Notes under the pieces: model-generated | What the model saw: the letters and a program-made list of their open reading frames with translations, nothing else | Database searches by the model: none | What the model was told of the DNA's origin: nothing | Translations under genes and position numbers: made by a program | NCBI RefSeq assembly: GCF_000090965.1 | Contig: NC_008513.1 | Location: forward strand, 180,001-212,000 | DNA: 32,000 nt | From: Candidatus Saccharimonadota bacterium | GTDB taxonomy: Bacteria > Pseudomonadota > Gammaproteobacteria > Enterobacterales > Enterobacteriaceae | Reading direction: 5' to 3' | Shown here: piece by piece, positions 6,914-32,000 of the stretch | Layout: each line of letters opens with the position of its first letter | Numbering within the stretch: the first letter of the stretch is position 1

Positions 6914-6978
6914 ATCATATTTAAAAATTTATTTTTAAAAACTATATTTTGTTTTTTATTTTATTTAAGGGAAAAATT

Positions 6979-7448
6979 TTGAATATTTCTAAAAAAAAAA
7001 AACTTTTTTAAATAAGAAAGTTAAATATAATTTTTATATAAAAAAAAAATTTATTTCTGGTATAGAATTACAAGGATGGGAAGTAAAATCAATTCGAGCA
7101 GGACATGTTCAAATTAGTGATGGACATGTAATTATAAAAAATAATGAAGTTTATTTAACTAATGTACAGTTTCAACCATTAATCTATACTTCAGATTTAA
7201 AATTTTGTTTGTCAAATCGTGTTAGAAAATTGTTATTAAAAAAAAAAGAAATTTTTTTTTTAAAAATGTATAGTATTAAAAAAGGATATACTATTGTCCC
7301 AATAAAATTGTTTTGGATTAAATCTTGGTGTAAAATAAAAATAGCATTAGTTAAAGGAAAATCAAAAATGGATAAACGTCAAGATAAAAGAAATAATTCT
7401 TGGAAAATAGAAAGAGATACAATTTTTAAAAGAATATTAATTAAATAA
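6979..7448 (+). CDS. smpB: SsrA-binding protein SmpB, interrupted by a frameshift inside an A12 tract (6991-7002)
   Basis: Frame 3 is open from 6993 to 7448 and encodes ..[34 protein letters not shown]...KGYTIVPIKLFWIKSWCKIKIALVKGKSKMDKRQD.., colinear with E. coli SmpB ([35 protein letters not shown]...). That frame has no start codon before 7209. A plausible start (TTG 6979, preceded by AAGGG at 6967-6971) encodes MNISKKKK in frame 1 and stops at 7009. One extra A in the tract joins the two frames. Confidence 0.8.
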
Positions 7449-7493: not shown

Positions 7494-7955
7494 ATGCTAT
7501 CTATAGATAATTATTGGATGAAATATGCTTTAAAACAAGCATATTTAGGAAAAAAAAATGGTGAAGTTCCTATAGGTTCATTATTAATTAAAAACAATAA
7601 TCTTATTAGTTCAGCATGGAATTCTTGTATTAATTTATTTGATGCTAGTGCTCATGCAGAAATATTAGTTATTAGAAATGGAGGAAAAATACTTAAAAAT
7701 TATCGATTAAAAAATACAATTTTATATGTTACTCATGAACCATGTTTTATGTGTTCCGAAGCTATTATTAATGCTAGAATTAATAAAGTTGTATATGGTT
7801 CTTATAGTTTTAAAAAAAACTGTTTTTCTTATTATATAAATTTTTTATATATTAATAATATTAAGCATCATATAAAAGAAATAAAATCAGGTATCCTATT
7901 ATATGAATGCTCAAATTTATTAAAAAATTTTTTTAGAAGAAAAAGATATACATAA
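7494..7955 (+). CDS. tadA: tRNA-specific adenosine deaminase
   Basis: Cytidine/deoxycytidylate deaminase zinc motifs HAEILVI and PCFMCSEAII are present. At 153 aa the size fits TadA. Confidence 0.85.
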   Translation: MLSIDNYWMKYALKQAYLGKKNGEVPIGSLLIKNNNLISSAWNSCINLFDASAHAEILVIRNGGKILKNYRLKNTILYVTHEPCFMCSEAIINARINKVVYGSYSFKKNCFSYYINFLYINNIKHHIKEIKSGILLYECSNLLKNFFRRKRYT

Positions 7956-12963: not shown

Positions 12964-14085
12964 ATGGTAAAAATAATGAAAAAAAAAAAAATTATTGTAG
13001 CAATGTCCGGAGGAGTAGATTCTTCTGTATCTGCTTGGTTATTATTAAAGCAAGGATATCAAGTAGAAGGTTTATTTATGAAAAATTGGGATGAAGATGA
13101 TTCTAATGATTATTGTTCATCAAAAATTGATTTTAATGATGTAAAAAAAGTATGTAAAACATTAAATATACCTTTACATACAATTAATTTTTCTGAAGAA
13201 TATTGGGAAAATGTATTTTTAAATTTTCTTAAAGAACATAAAAAGGGAAATACTCCAAATCCAGATATTTTATGTAATAAAATAATTAAATTTAATATAT
13301 GTTTAAAATTCTCATTAAAATATTTAAAATCTGATTATTTTGCTACTGGACATTATGCTAAAATTAAAAAAACAAAAAAAAATTTTTATTTATATAGAGC
13401 ACATGATAAAAAAAAAGATCAAAGTTATTTTTTATATACTTTAAAATCTAAAATTTTATCTAAAATAATTTTTCCATTAGCTTATTTTAAAAAAAAAAAA
13501 ATTAGAAAAATAGCAAAAAAAATAAAATTATCTGTTTATAAAAAAAAAGATTCTACAGGAATTTGTTTTATTCAACCTAAAAAGTTCAATTCTTTTTTAA
13601 AACAATATATTCCTCAAAAAATTGGAAAAATTTTAACTATGTCTAAAGAATTTTTAGGATTACATTTAGGTTATGAATTTTATACTATTGGTCAAAGAAA
13701 AGGATTAAATATTGGAGGAAAAAAAAAAAAAAAAAATGCTTATCCTTGGTATGTAGTAAAAAAAGATATTTATTTAAATATTATTTTTGTAGTACAAGGA
13801 TTAAGAAATCCTTATTTATTATCTTATGGATTTTTAACAAAAAAAATTCATTATATAAATGATAATATTTTTTATTTTAAAAAAAAATGTGTTGTACAAA
13901 TAAAATACAGACAAGAACCAATTATTTGTGAATTTTTTAAGATTTCTAAGAAAAATAATTATATAAAAGTAATTTTTAAAAAACCTATTTTATATGTTAC
14001 TCCGGGTCAATCTGCAGTTTTTTATTTAAAAAATAAATGTTTAGGAGGATCAATCATAAAAAAAAATATACCTTATTTACCATAA
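12964..14085 (+). CDS. mnmA: tRNA 2-thiouridine(34) synthase MnmA/TrmU
   Basis: The PP-loop [13 protein letters not shown] and the catalytic Cys motifs NPDILCNK and DSTGICFI are present. The start may be the ATG at 12976 ([13 protein letters not shown]). The gene contains an in-frame A18 run at 13719-13736. Confidence 0.9.
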
Positions 14086-22375: not shown

Positions 22376-22787
22376 GTATTTCCCTTATATAAATTTTTAA
22401 TTTTTACTTTAAATTAATTATTAATTATTTTTTATGAAATATTATTAAATATTATTATTAATAAATTTTTTAGCATCAAAAAATTTATAAAATTTATAAT
22501 ATATTTTTATTTAATATATAAAAATTTAATAATTTTATTTTAAAATTAGTATTTAAAATAGCTTATTACAAGAAATATTTATTTTTAAAAAATATTATTT
22601 TTTATAAAATTAAGATATTATAATAATTTTTATTATAAAAAACATCTATATATTATATATTTTATTAATAAATTTTAAATTTCTGTTATTTATGATATAT
22701 TTTTTATTATTTGAAAAATTTTTTAATATCTATTATGATATAATTTTTATTTATATAAATAATAAAAATAAGAAATAGGTATTTAAT

Positions 22788-23518
22788 ATGGCAGAGAAAA
22801 TTCAAAAAATATTATCAAATTGTGGTGTAGATTCACGTCGTAATATTGAAAAACATATTTTAAATAAATCATTAAAAATAAATGGAAAAATTGTACATAT
22901 AGGGGAAAGATTTTTAAAAAAAAATATTAAATCGATATTTTTAAAAAAAAAAAAATTTTTATAAAAAATGAAAAAACAAAAATACTTATATATCATAAGC
23001 CAGTTGGAGAAATATGTACTAAAAAAGATCAATATAATAGAATTACAGTTTTTAAAAAATTACCAAAATTATTTTTTTCAAAATGGATTAGTATTGGTAG
23101 ATTAGATATTAATACATCAGGTTTATTATTATTTACTAATTTTGGAGAATTAGCACATAGATTAATGCATCCTAGTTATAGAATAAAAAGAGAATATCTT
23201 GTTTGTGTTCTTGGAAAAATTTTAAAAAAAAAAATACTTTTACTAAAAAAAGGAATTTTGATTAATAATTCTATTTCTAAATTTCACGAAATTATTTTTT
23301 TAAAAAAAAAAAAAAAAAATCAATGGTTTAAGGTATCTTTGTTTCAAGGAAAAAATAGAGAAGTTCGTTTATTATGGAATGCTATTAATATCAAAGTTAA
23401 TCGATTAATTCGAATTAAATTTGGAATAATAACATTACCTAAATTTTTGAAATCTGGTTGTTTTTTTGAATTATCTTATCAAAAAACAAAAAATATATTA
23501 AGTTTAGTAAATTTATAA
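22788..23518 (+). CDS. rluB: 23S rRNA pseudouridine synthase RluB, interrupted by a frameshift inside an A13 tract (22943-22955)
   Basis: The ATG at 22788 opens MAEKIQKILSNCGVDSRRNIEKHILNKSLKINGKI.. (S4 domain, cf. E. coli [24 protein letters not shown]), which stops at 22962-22964. Frame 2 is open from the tract onward: IFIKNEKTKILIYHKPVGEICT...WISIGRLDINTSGLLLFTNFGELAHRLMHPSYRIKREY...GKNREVRLLW...RLIRIKFG. The catalytic GRLD Asp motif is intact. One extra A joins the frames. The ORF-track entry 23165..23518 is only the part after the first in-frame Met. Confidence 0.85.
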
Positions 23519-29598: not shown

Positions 29599-31650
29599 TT
29601 ATTTATTTTTATTAATAATTTTTTTTAAAAAATTTTTAATCCAATATAATAACTCTTTGTCATTTGAAAATTTTTTATAATAATATATTTTATATTTTAA
29701 TATTTTCCAATAAAAAAGATTTCTAATGATTTTTTTATATAACCATTGTATATTTAAAATATTTTTTTTTGAAAAAATTAAACATATTTTTTTAATATGA
29801 AAAAAAATTTTTTTAATACCAATTTTTTTAGAAAGAATTTTTATTTGTGTTAATAAAAATAAATTTTTTGTATATTTTGGTAATTTTCCAAATATATTAA
29901 ACATTGCATGTTTTATTTTTTTTAGTTTTTTGTTTTTCTTAACAGATGATATTTTTTTATAATACATTAATCTTATATTAATATCTTTAATATAGTTATT
30001 TGGTAGTATTGCAGATACATTTAATTGAATATCAATATTTTGATTAAAATTTTTTATTTCATTAATTGTTTGTAAATTTTTTTTTTGCTTTATTTTTAAA
30101 ATTGATTCTTTAAGAAATTTTTTATATAGTTTAAAACCAATTGTTTTAATATGACCGCTTTGATTTGTTCCTAATAATTCACCAACTCCTCTTATTTCTA
30201 GATCATGTTTTGATAATATTAAACCAGATCCTAAATCTGTATAATTTTTTATTATATTTAATCGTTTTTTTGCTTTTTTATTAATTTTATTTAAATTTGG
30301 TATTAAAAAAAATGCATATGCTTGTCTTTTAGAACGACCTATTCTACCACGTAATTGATGTAATTGTGATAATCCAAATTTATCAGCATTTTCTATAATC
30401 ATAGTATTAACATTACTAATATTTATTTCAGTATCTATAATTGTAGTACAGATTAAAATATCAAATTTTTTATTAAAAAAATCATACATAATTTTATATA
30501 AATCTTTACTATTCATTTTTCCATGACTAATTTCAATACGAGCTTCTGGGATTAAATATAATAAATATTTTTTTTTTTCTTCTATATTTTTAACTCTATT
30601 AAATAAATAATATACTTGTCCTTTTCTTTTTAATTCTCTTAATATTACTTTTCGTATAATTTTAGGATGAAAATTTTTGATAAATGTTTTTATTTTTAAA
30701 CGTTTTTTTGGCGGAGTAGATATAATAGATAAATCTTTGATTCCAAGAATAGACATATTTAATGTTCTAGGAATCGGTGTAGCTGTTAAAGTAAGTATAT
30801 CAATATTAATATATAATTTTTTTATTTTTTCTTTATGAAATACACCAAAACGATGTTCTTCATCAATAATTAATAATCCTAAATTTTTCCAAATTAAATA
30901 TTTTGATAAAATTTTATGTGTACCAATAAGAATATTTATTTTTCCATTTTTGATTTTTTTTTTAATTATTTTTTCTTTTTTACTTGATGTAAAACGTGAA
31001 TATACATTAATTTTATACTTATACTCAGAAAATCGATTTTTAAATGTATTATAATGTTGTTGAGCTAATAAAGTCGTTGGAACAAGAATAGCAACTTGTT
31101 TTTTATTATCTAAAGCTATAAAAGTAGCTCTCATAGCTATTTCAGTTTTTCCAAATCCTACATCTCCACATAATAAACGATCCATAGGAACTGATTTTTT
31201 CATATCTTGTATAATTTCTTTTATAGAGTTTTTTTGATCAAGTGTTATATGATACAAACACTTATTACAAAAATTTTTGTATTTCAAAATATTTTTTTTA
31301 AAGGAAAATCCTTTTCTACAATATCGATGTGCTTTAATATCAATTAATTCAACAGCTGCATCATAAATTTTTTTTTTTACTTTTTTACATGTTTCTAACC
31401 ATGTTTTAGTTCCTAAAGTATTTAAAGATATTTTTGAAGTATTTGAAGTTTTATAAATATTTATTAAATTAAGAGATGTAATAGGTACGTAAAGTTTAAC
31501 TTTATTTGCATACATGATTACAAAATAATCTGTTAATTTTCCTTTATTTTTTAATGTACATAAATCAATATATCTACCAATGCCGTATTGAGTATGAATT
31601 ACAAGTTGATTTTTTTGAAATGTTTTTTTTTTTGTGTTTTTTTTTTTCAT
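29599..31650 (-). CDS. mfd: Transcription-repair coupling factor Mfd, N-terminally truncated form (683 aa; RID + translocase + C-terminal domain only)
   Basis: The protein starts at ..QLVIHTQYGIGRYIDL..TDYFVIMYANKVKLYVPITSLNLI (E. coli ~aa 480: PVVHLEHGVGRYAGM..GEYLMLTYANDAKLYVPVSSLHLI). Then follow MDRLLCGDVGFGKTEIAMRA (Walker A), LIIDEEHRFGV (DEEH box), QLHQLRGRIGRS and LEIRGVGELLGTNQSGHI (TRG motif). Nothing corresponds to the ~470-aa UvrB-homology N-terminal module. Confidence 0.9.
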   Translation of the reverse strand: MKKKNTKKKTFQKNQLVIHTQYGIGRYIDLCTLKNKGKLTDYFVIMYANKVKLYVPITSLNLINIYKTSNTSKISLNTLGTKTWLETCKKVKKKIYDAAVELIDIKAHRYCRKGFSFKKNILKYKNFCNKCLYHITLDQKNSIKEIIQDMKKSVPMDRLLCGDVGFGKTEIAMRATFIALDNKKQVAILVPTTLLAQQHYNTFKNRFSEYKYKINVYSRFTSSKKEKIIKKKIKNGKINILIGTHKILSKYLIWKNLGLLIIDEEHRFGVFHKEKIKKLYINIDILTLTATPIPRTLNMSILGIKDLSIISTPPKKRLKIKTFIKNFHPKIIRKVILRELKRKGQVYYLFNRVKNIEEKKKYLLYLIPEARIEISHGKMNSKDLYKIMYDFFNKKFDILICTTIIDTEINISNVNTMIIENADKFGLSQLHQLRGRIGRSKRQAYAFFLIPNLNKINKKAKKRLNIIKNYTDLGSGLILSKHDLEIRGVGELLGTNQSGHIKTIGFKLYKKFLKESILKIKQKKNLQTINEIKNFNQNIDIQLNVSAILPNNYIKDINIRLMYYKKISSVKKNKKLKKIKHAMFNIFGKLPKYTKNLFLLTQIKILSKKIGIKKIFFHIKKICLIFSKKNILNIQWLYKKIIRNLFYWKILKYKIYYYKKFSNDKELLYWIKNFLKKIINKNK

Positions 31651-32000
31651 TAAAAAAATTTATTCCGATTCATTATATATAATAAATATATAGTTGATAT
31701 AAAAAGATATTATTATTTTTACTTAAAAAGAACAATATTCTTATTTTTATTTGTATAAAATTAAATTAGTTTATATTTTTATTAGATAATTCTATAATAT
31801 TAAAATTTAATTAAATATTTATATTTTTAAAAAATAAATAATTTATATTAAAAAATTATAATATATAATTATTATTGAGAATAATTCTTTAATCATTTAA
31901 AATATACTAAATTTTTTAAAAAAGTATTTTATAAATATCTAAATTTATTTTTTTATTAAAAATAAATTATTTATTTAAAAATTAAATAATTAATAAAAAT

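Follow-up and report, generated by a model that had tools for sequence, protein, structure and literature searches.

How can a bacterium keep a protein whose gene, as it stands in the chromosome, stops after ten codons? SmpB, the obligate partner of transfer-messenger RNA (tmRNA), occurs in almost all bacteria, and in Buchnera aphidicola BCc, the symbiont of the aphid Cinara cedri, the reading frame of its gene, smpB, breaks inside an uninterrupted run of 12 adenines (A12). The stretch analysed here, called the window below, is the 32,000 nucleotides (nt) from 180,001 to 212,000 of contig NC_008513.1, and positions are given within it. The frameshift itself is real, ordinary for BCc and of a known kind; it is already on record, not new, and it calls for no new mechanism. 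What this work adds is comparative evidence, drawn from the same locus in related symbionts, which suggests that smpB has been maintained despite the frameshift and which contradicts the reading of the gene as inactivated. We think it probable, judging from the sequences, that BCc smpB remains a working gene although its genomic frame lacks one base in A12, and that slippage of RNA polymerase is the main route by which this base is supplied.

The coordinates on which the initial annotation had based its description of a split smpB (the TTG at 6979, the AAGGG before it, the stop at 7009, the A12 tract at 6991-7002 and the body in frame 3) all hold on direct reading (Table 1). Translation on the genomic frame ends after 10 codons, and BCc smpB has no uninterrupted genomic reading frame, frame 1 stopping at 7009-7011 and the body lying in frame 3. 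It had also been said that frame 3 offers no start until 7209; this stands for ATG, GTG and TTG, the earliest of which is the TTG at 7209, and falls for non-canonical codons, as RefSeq models a start at ATT 7053. The body is hardly a chance opening of a DNA with about 19% G+C, because a stretch of 152 open codons has a probability of only about 2e-6 when estimated from the stop-trinucleotide frequency of the window. A promoter scan at the locus returned no more sites than shuffled sequences and no terminator, which is silent on co-transcription with grpE.

One A added to the tract yields, as had been claimed, a full-length SmpB: a product of 156 amino acids (aa) that matches positions 9-154 of the 156 in the NCBIfam equivalog profile NF003843 with 150.6 bits, above the cut-off of 130, and reaches 137.4 bits on a second SmpB profile (cut-off 119.1), the family being that of NF003843/TIGR00086 and Pfam PF01668. 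Its alignment with the E. coli SmpB chains of ribosome structures extends over 143 residues and needs no gap (e.g., 7acj_5; E = 3e-35). The frame-3 body, modelled by AlphaFold2 with 30 homologues, reaches a mean predicted local distance difference test score (pLDDT) of 91.6, with strands at 15-24, 45-49, 52-56, 78-81, 100-109 and 112-121, and with residues 128-150 forming a helix at the C-terminus (numbering of the body). Its N-terminus is modelled as a short strand (5-6), a helix (8-13) and the strand 15-24, in 10-residue blocks of mean pLDDT 89 and 93. The predicted model and the E. coli alignment thus agree on the architecture of SmpB, in which a long basic helix or tail at the C-terminus follows a β-barrel core, and the restored product is, as far as sequence and model go, a complete SmpB.

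The comparison of tract length in sister strains that the initial annotation had proposed is what carries the argument. We compared the grpE-smpB-tadA region of nine other Lachninae Buchnera assemblies, taking as a measure of frame how far, modulo 3, the start codon lies from the codons of an invariant GWEV anchor, where 2 means that one A has to be added and 0 that the gene is in frame. Just like BCc (A12), offset 2 is found in the symbionts of C. curvipes (L083, LR217710; A10) and C. laricifoliae (L082, LR217717; A9 and then G), in L085 (LT667500; A10) and in L086 and L087 (LT669949 and LR025085; A13), the last two being assemblies of one lineage with an identical tract. The Logan assembly L084 (A10) joins them, with some uncertainty, if its TTG 969 is the start, since no Shine-Dalgarno (SD) sequence precedes it; an earlier reading of this genome from TTG 982, by which it would have needed the removal of an A, was dropped. 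Offset 0, on the other hand, is found in L081 (LR217700; A11 + A11), in CP135006 (L088/L089) and in the symbiont of C. pseudotaxifoliae (L090). The smpB of at least five other Cinara-Buchnera genomes, and conditionally of a sixth, is therefore out of frame, always in the direction that needs one more A, and the break is common to different species. On these sequences, a broken smpB frame recurs across Cinara Buchnera.

What surrounds the tract in these relatives does not look abandoned. The TTG start is kept in all six out-of-frame relatives (in L084 as TTG 969) and the SD in all but L084, with AAGGA or GAGGA standing 5′ of the start in L081-L083 and L085-L087, and BCc, L081 and L083 share the TTG and the opening codons (MNI). 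The stretch between start and tract differs among relatives by whole codons, leaving the frame offset unchanged, the smpB bodies are intact, and in no out-of-frame genome does the body frame offer a canonical start 5′ of the conserved NKK..YNF segment. Depositors translated across the shift in L083 and L082, where the gene is annotated over 494 and 497 nt, neither of them a multiple of three, with products of 164 and 165 aa. The symbionts of C. piceae and C. kochiana, with GenBank products of 164 and 163 aa as opposed to N-truncated RefSeq products of 140 and 137 aa, would appear to share the frameshift. A scan of genome contigs with the restored SmpB filled up with ELQGWEVK matches from free-living Gammaproteobacteria and gave none from Buchnera, and metagenome scans with BCc-specific smpB sequence revealed no second copy of the BCc gene; exact look-ups of the BCc TadA and of the RefSeq SmpB product gave no record either.

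Two A tracts no more than 9 bases apart occupy the smpB N-terminus in L081 (1501-1560), L083 (978-1035) and L082 (980-1035), with no body-frame stop between them, so that in genomes of this type the frame would be restored by a slip adding one A to the first tract or to the second. The first is where the depositors put their correction, and the length difference between L081 and L083 lies in the second (A11 as opposed to A10). Outside the Cinara symbionts, a second Buchnera with a frameshifted smpB, strain TLW03 from Acyrthosiphon pisum, is listed in Table 3 of Hudson, Lau & Williams 2014 (PMC4131195), and smpB may be a recurrent target of frameshifts there as well.

How old is the broken state? 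In a neighbour-joining tree built from 282 columns of TadA and SmpB, bootstrap support for the Cinara crown clade is 100% and the out-of-frame lineages are spread across it, whilst the in-frame cases are nested: L081 is sister to the C. curvipes symbiont (99%), and the C. splendens group to that of C. laricifoliae (99%). The outgroups (C. tujafilina, 443,747-bp genome, CP135006) are in frame. Parsimony would weakly favour one old frameshift followed by two reversions over at least six independent losses; its case is a weak one because homopolymer indels are frequent. Tentatively, and with more doubt than conviction, we entertain the idea that an smpB requiring one more A was ancestral to the crown Cinara-Buchnera clade and was kept by selection through deep divergence, with two lineages reverting. 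If this were true, a near-universal ribosome-rescue factor would long have been expressed through slippage only, the broken frame would be less a defect that is tolerated than a built-in setting for a low dose, and the uniform polarity of the breaks would mirror the tendency of Buchnera RNA polymerase to insert bases on A tracts. Under either history, the sequences indicate that the out-of-frame state has been tolerated for long periods.

Tolerance could still mean neglect, and the tmRNA survey, as well as the genome paper as cited there, reads smpB as a pseudogene, with trans-translation lost or being lost in BCc. The genomic reading frame is indeed broken after 10 codons, Hudson et al. list the mutation as apparently inactivating and write of ‘the pseudogene’, smpB and ssrA are lost in some other tiny genomes (PMC4131195), and BCc is the most reduced of the compared Buchnera genomes, with 416 kb and 353 coding sequences (Degnan et al. 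2011, PMC3164680). Decay should, however, show as further lesions or as relaxed constraint, and BCc smpB has neither. As the initial annotation had it, the gene is otherwise without damage: there is no second lesion in 151 codons, there are no gaps relative to E. coli SmpB, three further homopolymers of 10 nt within the body remain in frame, and the SD and TTG are conserved; even the residues encoded from the tract up to ATT 7053 contribute 15.8 bits to the SmpB profile score. The ratio of nonsynonymous to synonymous substitution rates (dN/dS) of smpB in pairwise NG86 comparisons with BCc is 0.30-0.47, next to 0.43-0.55 for grpE, 0.33-0.39 for acpS, 0.34-0.37 for era and 0.15-0.31 for tadA, values of which only the comparison between genes counts and not the absolute ω, dS being saturated and composition-biased at 19% GC. 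In the close pair of L081 (in frame) and L083 (out of frame) the ratio is 0.22 for smpB and 0.10-0.23 for its neighbours. By this comparison smpB is no freer to change than its intact neighbours and is under purifying selection equal to theirs.

In a simulation of neutral, AT-biased decay the body was still open in 34% of cases at 0.02 substitutions per site, in 7.5% at 0.05 and in 0.85% at 0.1, suggesting that an unconstrained body would close after about 0.02-0.05 substitutions per site. With at least five other genomes in the same state and with intact bodies, the pseudogene interpretation would need many independent and very recent inactivations, and their occurrence in five to eight lineages seems improbable; we regard the loss of smpB function in BCc as quite unlikely. 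An error of homopolymer length in the 2006 assembly, the true tract being A13, can be judged on much the same grounds. Homopolymers are error-prone and the collections searched gave no second BCc assembly, but the genome authors noted and discussed the frameshift, according to what Hudson et al. relate of them (PMC4131195), the depositors' translation spans it, independent assemblies of other species carry a frameshift of the same class (with L086 and L087 identical at A13), and a second gene of the window, rluB, is broken likewise. We give such an error hardly any credence. A recent pseudogene and an assembly error, the two alternatives that the initial annotation had left beside its preference, are thus both unlikely, because the relatives share the state, the start is kept, the body is intact and dN/dS is like that of the neighbours, and the decay simulation points the same way; its preference for a gene that still works although a homopolymer shifts its frame, as reported for Buchnera and Blochmannia, is the one that relatives and dN/dS favour.

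The public records disagree on what this gene is. GenBank ABJ90631.1 (UniProt Q057R8) is a ‘tmRNA-binding protein’ of 156 aa, conceptually translated across the frameshift and equal to the restored product except for residue 9, an L instead of a T (...KKKKLFLNK...); its join would correspond to frame 1 read through CTT 7003-7005 and then TTT 7005-7007, i.e., to a −1 shift placed after the tract. RefSeq WP_419177183.1 is a protein of 131 aa that starts at ATT 7053 and begins MSGIELQG. Among the smpB mutations that seem inactivating, Table 3 of Hudson, Lau & Williams 2014 has the entry ‘Frameshift: Buchnera aphidicola BCc’, and a passage of the same paper tells that the authors of the 2006 genome noted and discussed the frameshift and refers to the gene as ‘the pseudogene’ (PMC4131195). 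One gene is therefore modelled in three ways, as a −1-join translation, with an internal ATT start and as apparently inactivated, and none of the texts consulted on BCc smpB (GenBank, RefSeq, Hudson 2014) cites the tract state of other Cinara Buchnera. Degnan et al. 2011 counted three homopolymeric frameshifts in BCc (PMC3164680), and the supplements of that paper make no mention of smpB. In the tmRNA literature BCc is one of the few genomes whose smpB is taken as apparently inactivated, and our comparison suggests a miscount; a maintained smpB bears on lists of ‘bacteria without trans-translation’, on pseudogene calls in tiny AT-rich genomes and on the consistency of databases.

The RefSeq model amounts to a proposal of its own, namely that translation starts at the non-canonical ATT 7053 and gives an N-truncated SmpB of 131 aa with no recoding, and this product still passes the NCBIfam cut-off (134.8 bits against 130). 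Its start, however, is residue 21 of the structural model, inside the strand 15-24 and after the helix 8-13, so that part of the predicted barrel would be lost, and the 25 residues left out account for the difference between 150.6 and 134.8 bits. No SD-like sequence precedes the ATT. Moreover, SD, TTG and leader are conserved, and through indels of codon size the offset has stayed the same in five or six lineages, which an untranslated leader would not lead one to expect. We consider this start very improbable and judge it an artefact of a pipeline avoiding a pseudogene call.

If the gene is live, then, the missing base has to be made good during transcription or translation. In the scheme that we favour, translation would start at TTG 6979, where an unedited transcript would give a stop after 10 codons; in a fraction of transcripts RNA polymerase would slip backwards on the T12 template and add one A, and the resulting A13 mRNA would encode the full SmpB of 156 aa, which would work with tmRNA in trans-translation. 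Slippage at A12, the polymerase as its main agent and the production of SmpB are all inferred here, and the frequency of slippage would presumably set the dose of SmpB. Rescue by transcriptional slippage has been the standard reading of Buchnera poly(A) frameshifts since Tamas et al. 2008, as reviewed in PMC3017870, and curators of Cinara Buchnera genomes annotate genes interrupted by A/T homopolymers as functional for this reason (bioRxiv 10.1101/2022.08.28.505559). Tamas 2008 is cited by Williams & Wernegreen 2010 for about 30% of in-frame transcripts from frameshifted genes, and the same source describes some frameshifts as conserved between species without degradation (PMC3017870). BCc smpB has the marks of this class: a break in a sense-strand A run of at least about 9-10 nt, a single lesion and no excess of rate. 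In Buchnera, 151 of 157 transcription insertions were single added bases in A/T runs, and they became exponentially more frequent in longer runs, as far as the 11 nt measured (Traverse & Ochman 2017, PMC5574713). The need for one added A in every out-of-frame relative matches this single-base insertion bias.

The ribosome could do the same correction, perhaps alongside transcriptional slippage, by a −1 shift or slide on A_AAA_AAA or by a −1 slip of peptidyl-tRNA-Phe on U_UUU_UAA. By sequence the two agents look alike, since the shift that would be needed is −1 on the mRNA and equals one extra A. Ribosomes are known to slide on consecutive AAA lysine codons. The TTG frame reads A_AAA_AAA in phase, the tract of L082 ends in an in-phase heptamer of the dnaX type (A_AAA_AAG), the passage from frame 1 to frame 3 is −1 in all out-of-frame relatives, and the depositors' translation equals a −1 join at the TTT just 5′ of the stop. 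On the other hand, no stimulatory structure is evident (the RNA of 6960-7100 has a minimum free energy of −15.3 kcal/mol, z = −0.60 against shuffles), nor is an SD-like sequence found 10-14 nt 5′ of the tract. The T run before the stop is missing in the out-of-frame L085 and L087, so that the A tract alone is common to all. Experiments in Buchnera and Blochmannia, as related in PMC3017870, demonstrated heterogeneous transcripts. We therefore consider a ribosomal correction unlikely, and a junction peptide could tell where the shift occurs, TFLNK placing it inside the A tract and LFLNK at a slip on U6 at the stop.

Several points weigh against slippage of a live smpB. No frame-restoring transcription error was detected in Buchnera LSR1 (Traverse & Ochman 2017, PMC5574713), the tmRNA literature treats BCc smpB as inactivated (PMC4131195), the length of A12 comes from the one BCc assembly present in the collections searched, and to these come the saturation of dS and the weak parsimony case mentioned above.

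Table 1. Positions of the split smpB and of other features of the window
Feature	Position	Strand	Remark
Shine-Dalgarno-like AAGGG	6967-6971	+	7 nt 5′ of the start codon; direct reading
Frame-1 leader open reading frame (ORF)	6979-7011	+	TTG start 6979-6981, (M)NISKKKKLF, TAA 7009-7011
A12 tract, site of the frame break	6991-7002	+	four lysine codons, uninterrupted; one added A, or a −1 ribosomal shift on A_AAA_AAA, would join leader and body
smpB body, frame 3	6993-7448	+	151 sense codons, stop TAA 7446-7448; frame-3 TAA 6990-6992 upstream
T6 run, then frame-1 stop (U_UUU_UAA)	7004-7011	+	second possible −1 ribosomal slip site; its use is conjectural
A10 tract in smpB body	7040-7049	+	in frame
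ATT, RefSeq start of the 131-aa model WP_419177183.1	7053-7055	+	unlikely to be a real start
A10 (7238-7247) and T10 (7252-7261) in smpB body	7238-7261	+	both in frame
tadA	7494-7955		downstream of smpB
A18 in mnmA	13719-13736		among the longest runs
yciC-rluB interval	22376-22787		410 bp
rluB	22788-23518	+	second gene split in a homopolymer
ORF of 76 aa	22802-23032	−	antisense overlap with rluB
A13 in rluB, site of the frame break	22943-22955		sense-strand
A18 in rluB	23302-23319		among the longest runs
mfd	29599-31650	−	N-terminally truncated, ORF of 683 aa

The genome around smpB makes such a tract unsurprising. The window runs through flhA, argS, the 16S rRNA gene, tRNAs, dnaQ, grpE, smpB, tadA, acpS, era, rnc, lepB and lepA onward, and the product of tadA is 100% identical to ABJ90632.1 of Buchnera strain Cc. 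A/T runs of at least 9 nt number 110 in the window as opposed to about 31 under a first-order expectation, and 98 of the 107 that are genic are sense-strand poly(A). All 23 runs of 12 nt or more (12-18) are sense-strand poly(A) within coding sequences; 21 of them are in frame and two, those of smpB and rluB, break the gene, with A17 in era joining the two A18 of Table 1 among the longest. The A12 tract is an ordinary feature for the BCc genome. As the consensus of 30 SmpB homologues begins MxKK, the N-terminal lysine run is an ancestral feature of SmpB that turns into a long A tract at the base composition of BCc. No tmRNA gene was found within the 32-kb window, and BCc is not listed among the six genomes without ssrA in Table 2 of PMC4131195.

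The other split gene, rluB, reads MAEKIQ...FLKKKKFL* in frame 2 and has its body in frame 1. One A added to its A13 gives 243 aa that match the RluB profile continuously from position 1 to 246 of 291 (233.6 bits), the same polarity as in smpB, and Degnan et al. 2011 (PMC3164680) probably had it among their three homopolymeric frameshifts. The shortened mfd ORF covers Mfd profile positions 478-1144 of 1148 and begins with two A11 tracts (MKKKNTKKKT...), with no coding signal in the 350 nt upstream of it (31651-32000). Neither the interval between yciC and rluB nor the 76-aa ORF antisense to rluB contained a family match, and a suspected truncation of flhA was rejected, the gene running off the 5′ end of the window.

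Set against the known cases, smpB is close to the slippage genes of Buchnera and Blochmannia (Tamas 2008; Wernegreen 2010, ‘ancient frameshifts maintained by selection’), as far as these are summarised in PMC3017870 and PMC3164680. Just like smpB, they have one indel in a long sense-strand A tract, are otherwise intact, show no acceleration of rate and carry a frameshift common to several species, and their genomes, like that of BCc, have a large excess of long A tracts. The differences are that heterogeneous transcripts were demonstrated there whilst BCc smpB is known from sequence alone, that the smpB tract lies within the first 8 codons, with an out-of-frame product that is only a 10-residue peptide, and that the out-of-frame states observed for smpB are all of the class that needs one added A. 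With the programmed −1 ribosomal frameshifting of dnaX, smpB shares an A-rich slippery heptamer in phase, a −1 shift and a single tRNA-Lys for AAA and AAG; unlike dnaX it has no upstream SD-like sequence or downstream stem-loop as stimulator, and its shift would make the only functional product and not a second isoform. Close as well is smpB itself in the other Cinara Buchnera, where its frameshifted form is annotated as functional in the symbionts of C. curvipes (VFP81456.1), C. laricifoliae (VFP83651.1), C. piceae (VFP88219.1) and C. kochiana (VFP81080.1). Tract lengths (A9 to A13) and flanking codons differ from those of BCc, and some of these genomes have two tracts in which the correction is possible, whilst the gene, the N-terminal position of the tract and the direction of the offset are the same.

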